Source of the DNA: an uncultured Chloroflexia bacterium
GTDB lineage: Bacteria; Chloroflexota; Ktedonobacteria; Ktedonobacterales; JADMIN01
Assembly (NCBI GenBank): GCA_963718915.1
Contig: CAVRAI010000007.1
Span: 420,001 to 452,000, forward strand
Reading direction: 5' to 3'
DNA length: 32,000 nucleotides
Made by a program: the position numbers and the translations under genes. Shown here in pieces: positions 4,495 through 32,000 of the stretch (position 1 is its first letter; the number at the start of each line of letters is the position of its first letter). The notes under the pieces were generated by a model that had not been told where the DNA came from, did no database searches, and saw only the letters and a program-made list of their open reading frames with translations.

Positions 4495-4591
4495 AGCGAT
4501 GAGTGCTCTCTTCCCGAAAATATGGAAGTCGTGCCGTGATAGTGGCACGACAGCAGGAGACTTTGAGATGAGTCTGTGAGATCCGCAATCC

Positions 4592-4621
4592 AGTATAGTA
4601 TGACGTTGCCGTTTACGTCAA
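4592..4621 (-). promoter_or_regulatory. Candidate sigma70-type promoter for the MFS gene (TTGACG-18-TATACT on the minus strand), overlapping the palindrome TGACGT-N8-ACGTCA at 4601-4620.
   Basis: The reverse complement of 4616-4621 is TTGACG and of 4592-4597 is TATACT. The site sits in an AT-rich divergent intergenic region. Confidence 0.35.
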
Positions 4622-4686
4622 TGTTGTCATCATGCGCTTATTCCCGGAAGTCAGCAAGAAACTACGCATTACTACTGATTATTTAG

Positions 4687-4715
4687 TTGACGAGAGTGCG
4701 TGGCGCCGCTATACT
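4687..4715 (+). promoter_or_regulatory. Candidate sigma70-type promoter (TTGACG-17-TATACT) for the small membrane protein gene
   Basis: TTGACG at 4687-4692, a 17-nt spacer, and TATACT at 4710-4715, about 65 nt upstream of ATG 4781. Confidence 0.45.
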
Positions 4716-4780
4716 GACCCGGTTGACACATCCGCACCGGTGAGCAGGTTGCTCGCCCGTGCCAAAGAGGAGGAATTCTC

Positions 4781-4972
4781 ATGCGTGGTGGTGGCTACGG
4801 TCTTATTGGCCTCGCTGTTCTTATCGGTATCTTTGCGGTGGTGAATCACTTCGTTCTGAGGCTCAACCCTGTTCCTCACTTTAGCACGATTGTTGTGGCC
4901 GTCGGCGTGGTGATAGGCATCGTTGGCCTGGCCATGTCATTCATGGGCGGGCGCTCTGCCGCCACGGCATAA
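4781..4972 (+). CDS. Small (63 aa) two-TM membrane protein, hypothetical
   Basis: A strong SD (AGAGGAGG, about 4765-4772) precedes ATG 4781. There are two clear hydrophobic helices: LIGLAVLIGIFAVV and IVVAVGVVIGIVGLAM. Confidence 0.6.
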   Translation: MRGGGYGLIGLAVLIGIFAVVNHFVLRLNPVPHFSTIVVAVGVVIGIVGLAMSFMGGRSAATA

Positions 4973-5187
4973 TCTCTCCAGGAATTTGCTGGCGAGGCGG
5001 AACTATAGCGTTCTCGCGTCGGGGGTGCGCGCTGGTCTCAGTGAGATTGGCCGCACCCTTTGGGTATGCGCGCCATTCCTAAGCTCTCCTATTTCTCCGA
5101 TCCTGCCAGACAACGGGCCGTTGTGCGATAATGTCCAGCGACGACACCAGTTTCTGTAGCGCCACACATCGGACAGGAGGAGGCGAT

Positions 5188-10801: not shown

Positions 10802-10822
10802 AAACCCGCGACGGCGGGTTTT
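10802..10822. terminator. Hairpin AAACCCGC-GACG-GCGGGTTT(T) between convergent genes; possible bidirectional terminator and part of a repeat unit
   Basis: An 8-bp perfect stem with T-rich flanks on both strands, located between the aminotransferase stop (10688) and the PLP-enzyme stop (11142). Confidence 0.4.
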
Positions 10823-10858
10823 GTGGTCGACCGCAGGGAGGCCGTTCAGGCGCGGTTT

Positions 10859-20171: not shown

Positions 20172-23057
20172 ATGGACGCCTGGGATACCTTCTTCGGCCC
20201 AAACGCGGGCTATGCGCAGGAACTGTACGAGCGCTACCTGCAAGACCCCGCATCGGTAGACGCGGCGACGCGCGCCTTCTTCGACGGGGTATCCTCGCCT
20301 CCGTCTGACATTGCGCCCGCTTCGACGCCGCCTGCTCCACCAGCTCCTCCCCTCAAGCGAGAGGTGAGCCAGACGCGCGCTATGGCCACCGGCGGCATCA
20401 CCGACGACGAGATTCGGCTGGCCGTCGGAACGGCGAAGTTGGCCCGGATGATCCGCACCTATGGCCACCTCGCGGCGCGGCTCGATCCGCTGGATACGCC
20501 CCCATTGGGCAACCGTGCGCTCGCTCCCGCCGCGCATGGGCTGACCGAGGAGGATCTGGCGAACCTGCCGACAAGCATCATCTGGCCCGGCGGCGACACT
20601 CACGGGGCGCGCAACGCTCGCGAGGCCATTGCCACATTGCGCGCGATCTACAGCGGCACGCTTGGCTACGAGTTCGCCCATATCCAGGATGAGGACGAGC
20701 GCGCCTGGCTGCACGAGAGTGTCGAGTCCGGCGCATTCCTCCAGCCGCTCGCCGCTGAGGAACGGCGCGAGTTGCTCCGGCGGCTCTCCGAGGTGGAGAC
20801 GTTTGAACGCTTCCTGCACAGCACCTTTACCGGGCAGAAACGCTTCTCCATCGAGGGGACGGATATGCTCGTGCCGATGTTGGACGAGCTGATCCACGAC
20901 GCCGCCGGGGTGCGGACACGCGAGGTGCTGATCGGCATGGCGCATCGCGGGCGGCTCAATGTGCTGGCCCACGTCCTGGGCAAACCGTATGCCCGCATCT
21001 TCTCCGAGTTCCATACCGCCCCAGACAAAGAGATGGTTCCCTCCGAAGGCTCGGCGGGCATCAACTATGGATGGACAGGCGACGTCAAGTATCACCTCGG
21101 TGCGCGCAAAACGGTGCGTGAGAGCGAACTGGCGCAGGTGGCGTTGACGCTGGCCCACAATCCCAGCCACCTGGAGTTCGTCAACCCGGTGGTCGAGGGC
21201 TTCGGACGGGCAGCGCAAGAGCAGCGCGACGAGCAAGGCGCGCCACGGCAGGACGTGGACCGGGCGCTCTGCATCACGATTCATGGCGATGCCGCCTTCC
21301 CTGGCGAGGGCGTCGTGGCCGAGACGCTCAACCTCTCGCGGCTGCCGGGCTACCAGACCGGCGGCACCATACGCATCATCGCCAACAACCAGATTGGCTT
21401 CACGACGGCCGCCGACCAGAGCCGTTCAACCCTCTACGCCAGCGATCTCGCCAAGGGCTTCGAGATCCCCATCGTCCACGTCAACGCCGACGACCCCGAG
21501 GCGTGCCTGAGCGCGGCGGCGCTGGCCCATGCCTATCGCCAGCGCTTCCACAAGGACTTCCTGATCGACCTCGTCGGCTACCGGCGCTGGGGACACAACG
21601 AGGGCGACGAGCCTGCCTTCACCCAGCCGCTGCTCTATGCCCGGATCGCCGAGCATCCGACGGTGCGCGCGCTCTACGCCGAAACGCTGGAGGCGGAAGG
21701 CGTGGTCTCGCCTGCCGATGCCGAGGCGATGCAGCGCGACATCCAGGGACGGCTGAAGCAGGCGTATGATGAGTTGATGGCGGGGCACATCCCGGAGGAG
21801 CAGGCCGCGCTGGAGGAGTCGCCCACGCTGGCGAGCGTCGAGACGGCGGTTCCAGTGGATGAGCTACGAACGATGAACGAGGCGCTGCTGGCACGCCCAG
21901 CGGGATTCACGCCGAATACCAAGTTGGAGCGGCTGCTGGCGCGGCGGCGCGAGGGCATCGAGAAGCCCGGCGGGATCGACTGGGGCTTCTCCGAGACGCT
22001 GGCCTTCGCGGCGATTCTGGCCGACGGCATACCCATCCGCCTGACCGGGCAGGATAGCGAACGCGGCACCTTTAGCCAGCGCCACGATGTGCTCCACGAT
22101 GCGCAGACGGGCGCTGCCTACATCCCGCTCCAGGCGCTGCCACAGGCGCGGGCGTCTTTCGCGATCTATAACAGCCCGCTCTCCGAGGCCTCGGTGCTCG
22201 GCTTCGAGTATGGCTACAGTGTCCACGCGCCCAATACGTTTGTGCTGTGGGAGGCGCAGTTTGGCGACTTCGCCAACGCCGGGCAGGTGCTTATTGACCA
22301 GTTCATCGCGGCGGCGCGGGCCAAGTGGCGTCAGTTGCCAGGGCTGGCGCTGTTGCTGCCACACGGCTACGAGGGCCAGGGGCCAGAGCATTCGAGCGGA
22401 CGGTTGGAGCGCTATCTGCAACTCGCCGCCGAGGATAATTTGCGCGTGGCGAACTGCACGACGGCGGCGCAGTACTTCCATCTGCTGCGGGCACAGGCGA
22501 CGCTGCTCGCCACCGCGCCACGCCCGCTGATCGTGATGACGCCGAAGAGCCTGCTGCGGCATCCCCGCGCCGGATCGAGCCTCGGCGACCTGACCGACGG
22601 CTCATTCAGGCCAGTGTTCGACGATTTCCAGGGCGAGCCTGCATCGGTGCGGCGGCTTATTCTCTGTAGCGGCAAGGTCGTGGTGGATCTGGAGGCGGCG
22701 CTGGACGCGCAGCCAGCATTGCGCGACTGGATCGCGGTGGCGCGGGTAGAGCAGCTCTATCCTTATCCAGAAGAGGCGCTCGGTGCGACGCTCCTGCGTT
22801 ACCCGCATCTGAACGAGGTTATCTGGCTCCAGGAGGAGCCACGCAACATGGGCGCGTGGAGCTACATCGCGCCACGACTGACACCACAGGTTGGCGTGGC
22901 GCTACGCTACGTGGGACGCCCGGAGCGGGCAAGCACGGCGGAGGGTCTGCCCAATGCGCACGCGGCGGAGCAGGCGAGAATAATCGGCGAGGCGCTCGGC
23001 GGCGAGCGGTCAGCAGGGGTAGAGACACGCGAGGGCGAGGGGCAATATGTCGATTGA
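20172..23057 (+). CDS. sucA: 2-oxoglutarate dehydrogenase E1 component
   Basis: Motifs [64 protein letters not shown] and [14 protein letters not shown]. Confidence 0.92.
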
Positions 23058-24372: not shown

Positions 24373-24393
24373 GCGGCTAACCTCACCCCTCAA

Positions 24394-24418
24394 CCCCCTC
24401 TCCTTGCGGGAGAGGGGG
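24394..24418. repeat. Perfect 10-bp C/G-tract hairpin CCCCCTCTCC-TTGCG-GGAGAGGGGG downstream of sucB (possible terminator)
   Basis: It starts 22 nt after the TAA at 24370-24372 and belongs to the same family as 15562-15585 and 30335-30356. Confidence 0.65.
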
Positions 24419-24721
24419 AGCGAGAGTTGTTCTGATCCTCTGGCATTCTGACTCCCCTCCCTCTATGTCGTTTTAGCATGTGCGACGGACACGGGCATTG
24501 CGGTGTGGGGAGCAGGCCGTAGCGTGAACGCTACGGCGAATGGGCGCATGCGACGGGAGCGTGTGGCGGGGCAATTTGCTGGCAGGCTCCGGCAAGCGCC
24601 CCTCATCAGACCGCTGCCGCGGGCCAGTAATCTGTCCTTCCTATTTTCTGACTCGCATTCCTCAGTTGCCTCTTGCCCTCTGCGTTTTCTCCGCTTTCTC
24701 ACTGACGCTCAGATATGCCTC

Positions 24722-27018: not shown

Positions 27019-28324
27019 TCACGCGCCGCGCGGTAGATCGGCCTCGGCCAACGGCGACGTACCACTGCGCAATGCGTCGCCCTGGATCACGTGCGGCTCA
27101 TAGAGCGGAATCAGGCCGAAGCGCGCCTTCAGCGCCAGGATGCGCCGCACCGACTGGTCAATCCGGTCGGCCGTGATCTGGCCCGCCTTCATCGCGTTCT
27201 TGATCGCCTGAATCATGCCGCGCATCGAGTAGGTATCGAACGCGCCTTCCAGCAGGTCATCCCCAGCCTCTATCGAGAGCACCGCCGCCTGTGGCAGCGT
27301 GTAGTGCAGGGCGATACCCTGCATATAAAGGCTGTCGGTCATCACCACACCCTGATAGCCGAGCTTGTCGCGGAGCGTGCCCTGCACCACTTTTGGCGAG
27401 AGCGTCGCCGGGAGATTCGGATCAATTGGCGGAACGATGACGTGTGTCACCATAATCATGCCAGGATCATCTGCGAGCAATCCCTTGAACGCGGCAAATT
27501 CCGTGGACTGCAACTGGCTCATGGTGCGGTCCATCGTCGGGAGTGTCTTATGGGGGTCGAGGGTGATACTGCCGATGCCAGGCCAGTGTTTGAGGCAGCC
27601 GATGACGCCGTTATCTTGCAGCCCATTGCAGGAATTCGCCCGCATAGCGGTCAACCGTGGTGGGGTCGTTGCCAAAGAGACGATCCCACTCCATGGCGGC
27701 TGGCGTGGTGCGCACGTCCACCACGGGCGCGAGGTTGGTGTTGATGCCGAGCGCCATCATTTCCTTGGCCGCGGTGACGCCCTCATTATAGGCGAACTGC
27801 GGATTGCCGCTTGCCGCCATCGTCTGCGCGGATGGCAGCGGTGGCGCCAGATTGTTATTGCCGAGGCGATCTACGCCGCCGCCCTCTTCATCCATCGTCA
27901 CAAGCATGGGAATCGCGGCGTGCGCCTGGATGGTTGCCAGCATGTCATGAAGCTGCTGCCAGTCGGTGATGTTCTGCTGATAGACAATCATCGCGCCCGC
28001 GTGCATGCCGACGACCATGTTGTCGACGTCCTGACTGTAGGTCTTGTAGGTCGACTCGATCAGAAACAGCTGGCCGAGCTTCTCATCCAGCGTCATGCCG
28101 CTCAGCATCTTCTCGACCGTCTGGTGTATCAACTGTTCGCGCAGCGCGGCCCCCGAGAAGCCGCCGCTCGTCGGAGCCAGCGTGGGCGATGGCAGGACAG
28201 CCTTGACGCCGTTGAGGTCGTTCGGCGCGTGGCCACTCGAAAGCCCGGCGCAGCCCGCCAGCAGCACCAGGCTCAACATCACGATCCAGAGTGACGTGCG
28301 CGGGAAAGTCCGACGCGCAGGCAT
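27019..28324 (-). pseudogene. Glycoside hydrolase family 3 (NagZ-like beta-N-acetylhexosaminidase) lipoprotein, split by a 1-nt frame disruption near 27622-27632
   Basis: The N-terminal ORF (28324-27611) has the lipobox LVLLAGC, MDEEGGGV and RLFGNDPTTVDRYAGEFLQWAAR*. The second ORF (27675-27019) continues with GLQDNGVIGCLKHWPGIG...VVMTDSL. Removing one nt gives AGEFLQGLQDNGV. Confidence 0.8.
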
Positions 28325-30294: not shown

Positions 30295-30334
30295 CGATTG
30301 TTCCTGGCGGCCCTCTCCCCCGCCCCTCCCCCAG

Positions 30335-30356
30335 CCCCTCCCCTAAAAGGGAGGGG
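30335..30356. repeat. C/G-tract hairpin CCCCTCCC-CTAAAA-GGGAGGGG downstream of the DUF2079 gene
   Basis: An 8-bp perfect stem about 40 nt after the stop, preceded by the C-rich run CCCTCTCCCCCGCCCCTCCCCCAGCCCCTCCCC. Confidence 0.6.
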
Positions 30357-30396
30357 AGCCAGAGGATGTGCGAGTTGTCAGGCTCTCTTTGCTCTG

Positions 30397-30464
30397 AACC
30401 CGCGCAGGCGGGTTTTGTGACGGAGCGCAAGCGACGACGTTCAGGCGCGGTTTCAACCGCCCGC
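30397..30464. repeat. Uninterrupted copy of the repeat unit seen at 10802-10858 plus 11083-11093
   Basis: AACCCGC-GCAG-GCGGGTTTTGTG...CGTTCAGGCGCGGTTT-C-AACCGCCCGC. There is a 16-nt and a 10-nt exact match to the 10.8-kb locus and roughly three-quarters identity across the intervening stretch, judged by eye. Confidence 0.6.
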
Positions 30465-30533
30465 ATTCTGGTTCCCCCTCCCCTCGCGCGTAAGGCTTAT
30501 TTTGTGTGGAGGAGAGATTAGAGGAGAGGAGGA

Positions 30534-30731
30534 TTACTCCTCCACCTGATGGCGCTCTTCTTCGATGCGCTGCATGTTCTGGCGGTCGACATAAATCTCG
30601 TAATAAGTGAGCAGGCATTCATTGCAGATATGGACGTTGGGCCAGACGAGAGTGCTGGTGAACAAATGCTCCACCTCAGTGGCACGTTTGCCGCAGTGTG
30701 AGCATCGTGTTATTGTTCTTGTCGTCTTCAT
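30534..30731 (-). CDS. Stand-alone ClpX-type C4 zinc-finger mini-protein (65 aa)
   Basis: RCSHCGKRATEVEHLF....VHICNECLLTYYEI matches the ClpX N-terminal zinc-binding-domain pattern CxxCGK..xEVxxL...x(n)..ICxEC. SD AAGGAAGGA lies before the ATG at 30731. Confidence 0.7.
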   Translation of the reverse strand: MKTTRTITRCSHCGKRATEVEHLFTSTLVWPNVHICNECLLTYYEIYVDRQNMQRIEEERHQVEE

Positions 30732-30798
30732 GCTTCTCTGTCCTTCCTTTGGTCATCTTCCGGGTTCGCCAAAGGTTTAGGAGACCCCCAACACTTGG

Positions 30799-31260
30799 CT
30801 ATTTCTGGAGTGTGCAAGTCTTCCACCCACTCACAGTACCACAAGCTTTCGCTAGCTGAGCGCCCACCATTAAGCTATGCACAATACCGACGCCGATTGA
30901 CGAGAAATTGTCGCCGCTAGCGCCATAAATGCTGGCTGAGACGCGAGCACCGCCATTATTCGCTATGGTAAGGGCCCAACGGGCACTGCATGACCCGGAA
31001 TATTCCAGGTACACAACACCTATGGAGTTGCCGTACTGGTCGAAGACGGTTTTATGGTCGAGTGCCTGTTCCGTCAGGTCGCATCCATCAATATGAGGAT
31101 CATCGCCTGTGCAGTCAGAGCCGCGACAGGCTACATCAGGAGAAGCCTTAGGCACAGAAAGGCCATATGCCTTTACTTGGTACGCCGTGGACACTTGCGC
31201 ACCAACAGCCATCGCGAGCACCAAAAGAACGATGAACAGCCGAGCAATGCGGTGTGCCAT
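30799..31260 (-). CDS. Secreted DUF2690 domain protein. The start is 31260 or 31272.
   Basis: A signal-peptide-like MAHRIARLFIVLLVLAMAVGAQV, then CRGSDCTGDDPHIDGCD...VVYLEYSGSCSARWA, matching the DUF2690 pattern from memory (C.G..C.G.DP...GC...v.LrYS..C...WA). Confidence 0.7.
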   Translation of the reverse strand: MAHRIARLFIVLLVLAMAVGAQVSTAYQVKAYGLSVPKASPDVACRGSDCTGDDPHIDGCDLTEQALDHKTVFDQYGNSIGVVYLEYSGSCSARWALTIANNGGARVSASIYGASGDNFSSIGVGIVHSLMVGAQLAKACGTVSGWKTCTLQK

Positions 31261-31549
31261 AGCGGAGACCATCCCTTCTCTGTGAGGCATGCAGTAACCC
31301 GACTCACAGATACTTGTAACCATGACTCTACATGACACAACCAAACGTACCCTGCACAACAACCAATGTCACGTATCTTCTGTTTGTCTTTTTGACACGC
31401 TTTACAACTGGAGGGGCGTTTTCTGTGTTTCCTGGCACGAAAACGTCCTACGGCGCGTTGGCGAAGGTAGCCAATTGTGTGGCAATATGGCGGAACGGGC
31501 TGGGTTTCCCTCGCATACGCGCCCTAGGGGGAGAGGGCCGACGGCCCAT

Positions 31550-31588
31550 AAAAAAACAAGCGCGACACCGAGGGGTCGGCATCGCGCT
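31550..31588 (-). terminator. Rho-independent terminator of the Fe-S protein gene
   Basis: On the minus strand: AGCGCGAtgCCGAccccTCGGtgTCGCGCT followed by TGTTTTTTTA, starting 20 nt after the stop at 31608-31610. Confidence 0.7.
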
Positions 31589-31607
31589 CGAATGAAATGG
31601 CGGCACC

Positions 31608-32000
31608 TCAGGACTGGTTGAGCACCGGCAGCTTCGAGACGCTCCAGCGATTGTTCGCGCTGCCCGTCTGGAACTGCACCATCGAGATGGCATCCGTTGG
31701 GCAGCGGACGATACAGAGGCCGCAGCGAATGCACTTCTCCTCGTCGATAATCATGTCGGCGCCACCTTCCCAGCTCGTTCCCGCCAGCTGATGGAGCGGA
31801 TCGCCCTTGACGACGCGCGTCAACCCCTGCATGCTGATGCAGTCGTAGGGGCAGATGTCCACACAGCCGCTGCACAGAATGCAGATGGATGGGTCGATCA
31901 TGATATTGAGCTGGCACTGCAAACAGCGCCTCGCCTGGGTAATCGCTTCCTCCGGGCTGTAGCCGGTCTCCGCCTCAGCCGTGATGCTGAAGCGCTTCTG
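31608..32000 (-). CDS. 4Fe-4S dicluster domain protein, C-terminal part (the 5' end lies off-window)
   Basis: The frame is open to the window edge. Two CxxCxxCxxxCP motifs are present (CILCSGCVDICP and CIRCGLCIVRCP), preceded by EEAITQARRCLQC. Confidence 0.8.
   Translation of the reverse strand, partial: QKRFSITAEAETGYSPEEAITQARRCLQCQLNIMIDPSICILCSGCVDICPYDCISMQGLTRVVKGDPLHQLAGTSWEGGADMIIDEEKCIRCGLCIVRCPTDAISMVQFQTGSANNRWSVSKLPVLNQS

Follow-up and report, generated by a model that had tools for sequence, protein, structure and literature searches.

A low-GC two-gene cassette of Ktedonobacterales pairs a DUF2690-family protein with a ClpX-type zinc finger that probably lost an Uma2 domain

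In a 32,000-nt stretch of DNA from an uncultured Ktedonobacterales bacterium (contig CAVRAI010000007.1, positions 420,001 to 452,000; called the window throughout), a low-GC islet carries two co-oriented minus-strand genes separated by a 67-nt spacer, as an earlier prediction from the sequence (hereafter the original prediction) had described. Gene 1 encodes a DUF2690-family protein, and gene 2 encodes a 65-aa mini-protein with a ClpX-type C4 zinc finger. We read the islet, with a probability of roughly 0.6, as a laterally exchanged two-gene cassette of ~1.1-1.2 kb in which gene 2 no longer carries an Uma2 domain. So far, the cassette has been seen only in Ktedonobacterales-type genomes. In its complete form, it would encode a small Cys-rich DUF2690-family protein with a Sec-type signal peptide, which is presumably exported, and a cytoplasmic protein in which a ClpX-type zinc-binding domain and a long helix precede an Uma2 PD-(D/E)XK nuclease-like domain. 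Gene 2 of the window and of a sister metagenome-assembled genome (MAG) appears to stop where this helix ends, with the Uma2 domain lost at the point where similarity to the complete cassette stops. As we discuss below, sequence comparisons, nucleotide composition, and a predicted structure bear on this reading and on three others.

Four distinct loci carrying the pair were compared: the window together with its counterpart in the sister MAG (L002/L007; Ktedonobacterales bacterium DATBIB010000104), L006, L008, and L009. The fusion came to light through the gene neighbourhood of the lone diverged DUF2690-like match, P0003 in L006 (152 aa, 60% identity to the gene 1 product). Directly downstream of P0003 and on the same strand is the gene for P0085, a 209-aa protein whose residues 1-66 are 65-66% identical to the mini-protein along its whole length, through "...MQRIEEGRYHVAE". 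Beyond residue 66, P0085 continues for ~140 residues that match Uma2 (PF05685; PD-(D/E)XK, "putative restriction endonuclease") with a score of 29.7 bits against a cut-off of 27. The same finger-Uma2 architecture occurs in P0063 (L009, 223 aa) and P0086 (L008, 219 aa), with Uma2 scores of 46.1 and 32.3 bits, respectively; all three proteins, P0085 included, score above the cut-offs of both PF06689 and PF05685. In L008, the gene for a 158-aa, signal-peptide-like DUF2690-like protein lies directly upstream of P0086 on the same strand; the L009 copy adjoins P0063 in inverted orientation and is missing its 5' part. The literature searched describes neither the finger-Uma2 architecture nor the DUF2690-like gene that constantly accompanies it. 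Neither window protein matched PADLOC-DB 2.0, in which the Uma2 part of P0063 weakly matches the candidate PDC-S03 (27 bits).

When P0085 residues 1-66 were used in tblastn, they matched window positions 30731-30537 at 65% identity, with no match beyond. DNA similarity between the window and L006 is confined to 30542-31285; at the protein level, it runs as far as 30537, where the final sense codon of the mini-gene lies. There was no Pfam match to Uma2 in the window, where tblastn of P0085, P0063, and P0086 matched the finger region only. Given that the three lineages with the greatest divergence (33-66% identity) carry the fusion and that the 65-aa form is confined to the clade of the window and L002, the simplest history is that the mini-protein is a domain-loss derivative of a finger-Uma2 fusion. 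The nuclease part itself varies among the full-length proteins: P0063 retains both acidic motifs (APDLAVF...PDLVVEVRS), and these motifs are eroded in P0085 (PEVALF and PDLVAHV) and in P0086 (ISVAVR and PDLVAEV). Because L009 keeps an intact-looking nuclease beside a truncated DUF2690-like gene and the window has the converse, the pair appears to travel together, yet either gene appears able to decay independently of the other.

The original prediction had proposed asking whether ClpX-type finger mini-proteins co-occur with DUF2690 in other genomes. They do to the extent that the pair recurs at the four distinct loci, but a hidden Markov model (HMM) of the four DUF2690-like proteins found no copy at 119 of 119 other ClpX-finger loci, most of which encode genuine ClpX of ~420 aa and a few of which encode short phage proteins. 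By these comparisons, the pairing is recurrent and, given the result for the 119 loci, specific to a narrow lineage. The pair is also carried by the sister MAG, where the NCBI names of the products are "DUF2690 domain-containing protein" and "ClpX C4-type zinc finger protein". As identical or near-identical copies are present in two MAGs and in four independent Logan assemblies, both genes are real and no accident of assembly. A word-indexed protein search with each protein alone returned one cluster for the mini-protein and two for the DUF2690-like protein; the DUF2690-like subfamily is tiny, with these two clusters among 5.8 billion proteins and two further members reached via gene neighbourhood. 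A metagenome scan and a viral scan with the DUF2690-like alignment gave no match, a metagenome scan with the finger-Uma2 alignment returned ClpX-like fingers only and no added cassette, and a viral scan with the finger returned mostly phage or prophage ClpX.

Composition sets the islet apart from the rest of the window. Its description as AT-rich is borne out by windowed GC and by third-position GC: the GC fraction of positions 30495-31450 is 0.516, the lowest of all 956-nt windows in the 32 kb (mean 0.631, standard deviation 0.032) and 3.6 standard deviations below the mean, a level as low as which only 0.03% of windows fall. GC at third codon positions (GC3) is 0.652 in the mini-gene and 0.545 in the DUF2690-like gene, compared to 0.66-0.86 (mostly 0.74-0.86) for the 17 other open reading frames (ORFs). 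The L008 and L009 cassettes are also low in GC (0.47-0.49) and GC3 (0.37-0.46), and the genes that flank them have GC values of 0.60-0.67 and GC3 values of 0.70-0.77. Divergence from the sister MAG points the same way. The flanking genes are ~88% identical to those of L002, synonymous divergence (dS) is 0.36-0.38 in the flanks and 0.025 and 0.085 in the islet, and 7 of 110 fourfold sites (6.4%) differ in the islet versus 138 of 565 (24.4%) in the flanks (Fisher p = 6e-6). Because the islet is compositionally off-equilibrium yet less diverged than its surroundings, it is best explained as having been laterally exchanged or recombined after the lineages of the window and L002 split. An acquired two-gene module, as originally proposed, therefore agrees with the foreign composition, with its repetition in L008 and L009, and with the low divergence relative to the L002 flanks.

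The mini-protein matches PF06689 (zf-C4_ClpX) over residues 9-46 with a score of 34.7 bits against a cut-off of 27, and the zinc ligands Cys10, Cys13, Cys36, and Cys39 (CxxC...CxxC) are invariant in all five aligned relatives. In an AlphaFold2 (AF2) model built from a 5-sequence alignment (mean pLDDT 86), two short beta-hairpins are followed by a helix at residues 37-64. Searches of the PDB with Foldseek using this predicted model gave ClpX at all of ranks 1-7. Rank 1 was 9a5x, an integrative full-length ClpX-ClpP model, and ranks 2-7 were crystal structures of the zinc-binding domain (ZBD) of E. coli ClpX (2ds5-2ds8), with target TM scores of 0.85-0.90; superposition of the model on the ZBD gave root mean square deviations of 0.7-0.8 Å in five of six matches and 1.7 Å in one. 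Against the ClpX equivalogs NF003745 and TIGR00382, by contrast with their cut-offs of 359 and 371 bits, the mini-protein scored only 22.8 and 19.6 bits. By HMM, ligands, and predicted fold, then, it is a member of the zf-C4_ClpX family and is not ClpX. The ClpX-type C4 finger of the original prediction holds for the domain and the fold, but not as a free ClpX domain of independent origin, since the mini-protein corresponds to the N-terminal part of a finger-Uma2 fusion. Nor does the "acidic tail" RIEEERHQVEE survive as such: because the AF2 model places a helix at residues 37-64, this segment would be the last part of that helix and not a disordered tail.

In the full-length protein, finger and helix would form an N-terminal dimerisation or partner-binding module. 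By analogy to the ClpX ZBD, the surviving module could be a zinc-dependent dimerisation or peptide-binding domain, and the mini-protein would no longer act on nucleic acid, keeping at most the partner-binding or regulatory half of the ancestral job. The ratio of nonsynonymous to synonymous divergence (dN/dS) for the mini-gene is 0.37 versus L006 and 0.25-0.37 across mini-gene comparisons; across comparisons of the pair, it is 0.17-0.44. Since the presumed loss of Uma2, the mini-gene has acquired two substitutions only. Elsewhere, short single-finger ClpX-type proteins of 78-153 aa were seen on IMG/VR contigs L037, L039, L041, and L043, beside many full-length phage or prophage ClpX genes, and PHROG families 5259 and 6797 match the mini-protein weakly.

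The gene 1 product matches PF10901 (DUF2690) with 26.4 bits against a cut-off of 23, in keeping with its original assignment, although the match is partial and covers profile positions 3-59 of 94. Its homologues are P0003, which was the sole diverged homologue recovered by sequence search and which scores 24.7 bits over profile positions 3-83, and the copies in L008 and L009. The start is the ATG of MAHRIARLF, with a Shine-Dalgarno sequence (SD), GAAGGG, 13 nt upstream, and both are kept in the diverged L006 locus. The N-terminus is basic, then hydrophobic, then rich in small residues, and contains a segment, MAHRIARLFIVLLVLAMAVGAQVSTA, that looks Sec-signal-like when judged by eye; read in the same way, MAHRIAR-LFIVLLVLAMAVGA-QVSTA/Y (the slash marking the would-be cleavage site) fits the Sec pattern of a basic n-region, a hydrophobic core of ~14 residues, and small residues at -3/-1. 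A signal-peptide-like N-terminus is kept in the L006 and L008 homologues. Because of this resemblance to a Sec-type signal peptide, the product is presumably exported. Its mature part contains six cysteines, of which Cys50 and Cys149 are both gone from the L008 homologue; their joint absence suggests that Cys50-Cys149 is one of three disulfides, the other two predicted pairs being Cys45-Cys60 and Cys91-Cys140. A sequence search of the PDB with the gene 1 profile gave no match.

The borders of the cassette bear on how it may have moved. A perfect 14-nt inverted repeat brackets the islet and is present in two copies only in the 32 kb, and the islet looks as if it sits in the loop of a hairpin resembling repetitive extragenic palindromic (REP) elements; the local-alignment score of the repeat equals the maximum of 200 shuffles and is borderline. 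Its arms are of the same type as the REP-like hairpins behind other genes (window 24390-24420; L009 351-383). Hairpins of the forms CCCTCTCC-loop-GGAGAGGG and CCCCTCCC-loop-GGGAGGGG were noted behind genes at these places and at window 30308-30360, and the window has three copies of GGGGAGGGG, all of them between 30323 and 30483 at the border of the islet. The low-GC cassette of L009 is bracketed by a 72-nt direct repeat (245-316 and 1603-1674, 65 of 72 positions identical) that copies the final ~16 codons of a host gene for a membrane protein. This repeat resembles the attL/attR sites of an integrated element, but L009 is a short Logan contig and an assembly effect on its repeats is possible. 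For both the window and L008, a search for direct repeats flanking the islet gave scores at the level of shuffled sequences. As a separate observation, an ORF of 228-241 aa lies beside the complete cassette in L006 (24-749, minus strand); it is Cys/His-rich, appears transposase-like by eye, and has no Pfam match.

Several points weigh against our reading of the islet as a laterally exchanged cassette with a shortened gene 2. When the upstream and downstream ends of the cassette were aligned across loci, no conserved termini emerged, and no transposase or integrase was found as a mobility gene at the cassette. A genome-collection scan with the DUF2690-like alignment returned the sister MAG alone, with the islet present, and recovered no empty site. 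The evidence base is small, comprising four distinct loci of which three are short metagenome contigs. The direction of change, loss rather than fusion, was deduced by parsimony and not from a rooted phylogeny. Over its entire history the mini-gene shows purifying selection, but this is not demonstrated for the 65-aa form itself, because the branch after truncation holds only the two substitutions. On the side of gene 1, export depends on the by-eye reading of the N-terminus, and the AF2 model from a 2-sequence alignment (pLDDT 44) is unusable. Literature searches turned up no functional study for DUF2690, for zf-C4_ClpX, or for 'ClpX C4-type zinc finger'.

The same truncation could have a more passive meaning, in which the transferred DNA ended inside gene 2 and the mini-ORF is what remains of its 5' part, functionless and not yet decayed, leaving the DUF2690-like gene as the only one that matters to the host. 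The point at which homology breaks off does match both the stop codon and the limit of the high-identity block, and because the islet is young compared to its flanks, the ORF should still be intact even if selection were absent. The eroded nuclease motifs in two of the three full-length relatives (P0085 and P0086) also fit, as does the reverse decay in L009, where truncation of the DUF2690-like gene indicates that the two genes are not strictly interdependent. What makes us regard such a remnant as rather unlikely is that both diverged genomes have kept the ORF, its SD, and the four Cys ligands intact, that truncation at a domain boundary (the predicted end of the helix) would leave a foldable domain, and that dN/dS is 0.25-0.37, though this signal mostly predates the truncation. 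It stays a serious rival because purifying selection cannot be shown for the branch after truncation. A more active history, in which a finger-Uma2 nuclease targeted by its finger drives the spread of the pair into intergenic hairpins or gene ends of Ktedonobacterales and then decays, with the window as an end stage, strikes us as distinctly improbable. It would account for a low-GC islet in three unrelated genomic contexts, for islet divergence below that of the flanks, and for a graded erosion of the nuclease that runs from intact in P0063 through eroded in P0085 and P0086 to absent in the window. The L009 direct repeat of a host gene 3' end that flanks the cassette and the perfect inverted repeat of REP-hairpin type that brackets the window islet could be traces of such insertion, and Uma2, a predicted PD-(D/E)XK endonuclease that may be a solo toxin, shows signs of having been transferred multiple times (PMC3424549; PMC2701414). 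Yet the four cassettes have no conserved ends, the window and L008 lack direct repeats, and the 14-nt repeat is borderline in a window where C-rich/G-rich hairpin halves are common. Moreover, nuclease activity is known for no Uma2 protein, viral contigs and JGI metagenomes gave zero matches to the DUF2690-like alignment, and the constant company of a secreted-protein gene is left unexplained. If true, this history would define a minimal mobile cassette of a new kind and provide a first concrete function for the large Uma2/DUF820 family.

The original prediction had suggested that a free copy of the ClpX N-domain could be a decoy, an anti-adaptor, or an adaptor for ClpXP. Such a protein might steer turnover tied to the exported partner. 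In ClpX, SspB and some substrates dock at the ZBD, and the isolated ZBD can compete for them in vitro; the predicted fold and the ligands of the mini-protein match this domain. Its identity to ClpX ZBDs is ~33-36%, however, with a 4-residue insertion, and bona fide ClpX (400-440 aa) is absent among the 82 closest representatives of 1.84 billion, among which Uma2 fusions and further finger proteins other than ClpX are nearest. The domain evolved, on the history favoured here, as the N-terminus of a nuclease-like protein, in which one would not expect a role directed at ClpX. The window contains neither clpX nor clpP, and a DUF2690-like neighbour is absent from all 119 other ClpX-finger loci examined. 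A role directed at ClpX is neither supported nor favoured by these results, and we consider it very unlikely.

Of the stems and repeats to which the original prediction had drawn attention, most exist but serve other ends or fold poorly (coordinates are given in the table). In the spacer between the two genes, 7-bp arms are present at 30746-30752 and 30769-30775, but the RNA folds no better than shuffled sequence (z = +0.70; 151 of 200 shuffles fold as well), and an A>G substitution in L002 breaks one pair of the stem. On these grounds, shuffle statistics and the disrupting substitution, translation control by an intercistronic hairpin was rejected. The stem across the stop codon of the mini-gene has genuine 9-bp arms at 30506-30514 and 30537-30545, next to a low-complexity tract that is pyrimidine-rich on the coding strand, but its fold is marginal (z = -1.85; 9 of 200 shuffles). 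Repeat and tract lie exactly where homology to the full-length gene ends and may be a rearrangement scar. The strong terminator said to bound the islet is also real, but lies outside the cassette and serves the upstream minus-strand Fer4/Pyr_redox_2 gene, which ends at 31608 directly before it; the cassette therefore needs a promoter of its own. A simple sigma-70 scan upstream of the cassette found no consensus site. The region between gene 1 and the right arm of the 14-nt repeat is 90-97% identical to L002, and only its last ~25 nt, around the SD, are common to L006. Three TGACAC/GTCAC-like motifs (ATGACACAAC, ATGTCACGTA, and TTGACACGCT) were noted within window 31330-31400, where the sequence upstream of gene 1 is low in GC, and a GTGACATTG motif is common to the upstream regions of the window and L006; these motifs may be promoter or operator elements. 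The repeat element reported at the opposite border proved to be a ~60-nt repeat with a second copy at 10802-10858; the repeat contains a terminator-like hairpin, AACCCGCG..GGCGGGTTTTGTG, followed by ...CGTTCAGGCGCGGTTT. With L002 identity of only 75-82% across it, this repeat is host-side sequence outside the cassette core. Rfam and tRNA scans of the window gave no match.

Table. Coordinates of the cassette and of the elements around it, in window positions.
Feature	Positions	Strand	Basis or remark
Left arm CGGCCCTCTCCCCC of the perfect 14-nt inverted repeat	30308..30321	.	repeat search
~60-nt intergenic repeat with plus-strand terminator hairpin AACCCGCGCAGGCGGGTTTTGTG	30397..30455	+	3' of the convergent DUF2079 gene
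Exchanged core, 96-99% nt identity to L002/DATBIB010000104	30470..31310	.	per-100-nt identities and alignment
9-bp inverted repeat GTGGAGGAG/CTCCTCCAC across the stop codon	30506..30545	-	repeat search
Gene 2, 65-aa ClpX-type C4 zinc-finger mini-protein	30534..30731	-	ORF and PF06689
Intercistronic spacer, 67 nt, with mini-gene SD AGGAAGGA and 7-bp CCTTTGG/CCAAAGG	30732..30798	-	sequence
Gene 1, 153-aa DUF2690-family protein	30799..31260	-	ORF and PF10901
Cassette upstream non-coding region, presumed promoter and 5' untranslated region	31261..31526	-	low GC to about 31450
Right arm GGGGGAGAGGGCCG of the perfect 14-nt inverted repeat	31527..31540	.	2 mismatches here in L002
Intrinsic terminator of the Fer4/Pyr_redox_2 gene	31557..31590	-	15-pair stem then TTTTTTT (terminator scan)

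Other features were noted elsewhere in the window and in L002. A glycoside hydrolase family 3 (GH3) gene at 27073-28324 on the minus strand is split by a frameshift near 27630, and tblastn of the intact 417-aa GH3 orthologue from L002 matches frames -2 and -3 of the window; the split gene is either a pseudogene or an assembly error. In L002, a 1.38-kb insertion of the IS605 type that carries TnpB only (OrfB_IS605/Cas12f1-like_TNB; L002 17873-19251) lies between the genes for the E1 and E2 components of 2-oxoglutarate dehydrogenase, and the uninterrupted counterpart of its insertion site is at 23035/23040 in the window. A second low-GC stretch (about 0.57), at 4549-5130, is a long divergent intergenic region that separates a major facilitator superfamily (MFS)-type transporter gene on the minus strand from a 270-aa ORF on the plus strand.

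Stand-alone ClpX-type fingers are common but lack an explanation. One concrete route to them would be the loss of a domain from a fusion in a laterally moving cassette, which counsels caution in reading every free ClpX finger as a regulator of ClpX. As a small, recurrent, foreign pair, the cassette ties together DUF2690, Uma2/DUF820, and non-ClpX fingers and could serve as a compact test system. In practice its weight is modest, as the family has few members, nothing implies a phenotype, and both genes already bear their domain names in public annotation.

Compared to known systems, the gene 1 product shares with the DUF2690 proteins (PF10901) of Actinobacteria a score above the gathering threshold, a Cys-rich N-terminal motif, and an SG.C.A.WA motif, but its match is marginal and partial, and it is a free-standing, signal-peptide-like protein in Chloroflexota. 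The mini-protein has the CxxC...CxxC ligands, the Pfam match, and the predicted fold of the ClpX ZBD (PF06689; 1OVX, 2DS5-2DS8). It differs from ClpX in having no AAA+ unfoldase, in its 4-residue insertion, located in the loop that precedes the second CxxC, in having a 28-residue helix where ClpX has a linker, and in having closest relatives that are fused to Uma2 domains and not to ClpX. Like the NCBI 'ClpX C4-type zinc finger proteins' (P0004-P0084; phage L037, L039, L041, and L043), it is small, finger-based, and not ClpX. Most of those found have 81-300 aa and two or four fingers, and none has 80 aa or fewer, whereas the window protein has a single finger and a likely origin in an Uma2 fusion, and a DUF2690-like partner is found in its subfamily only.

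The full-length relatives P0063, P0085, and P0086 match the Uma2/DUF820/TT1808 family (PF05685, COG4636) over profile positions ~35-170, and that family has been described as mobile and multiply transferred (PMC3424549; PMC2701414). In the fusions, however, the finger substitutes for the first ~35 profile positions, two of the three lack some catalytic-motif residues, and from the window protein the Uma2 domain is missing altogether. A different kind of likeness, in concept only, connects the islet to systems in which a free copy of an unfoldase N-domain acts in its own right, as the original prediction had proposed here. In mycobacteria, ClpC2 and ClpC3 are stand-alone paralogues of a Clp unfoldase N-domain that act as decoys, and decoys of this type are close paralogues of the N-domain of the host's own unfoldase. 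The finger encoded in the window, by contrast, is no closer to ClpX than to many unrelated fingers, and its origin appears to be a fusion to a nuclease-like domain.

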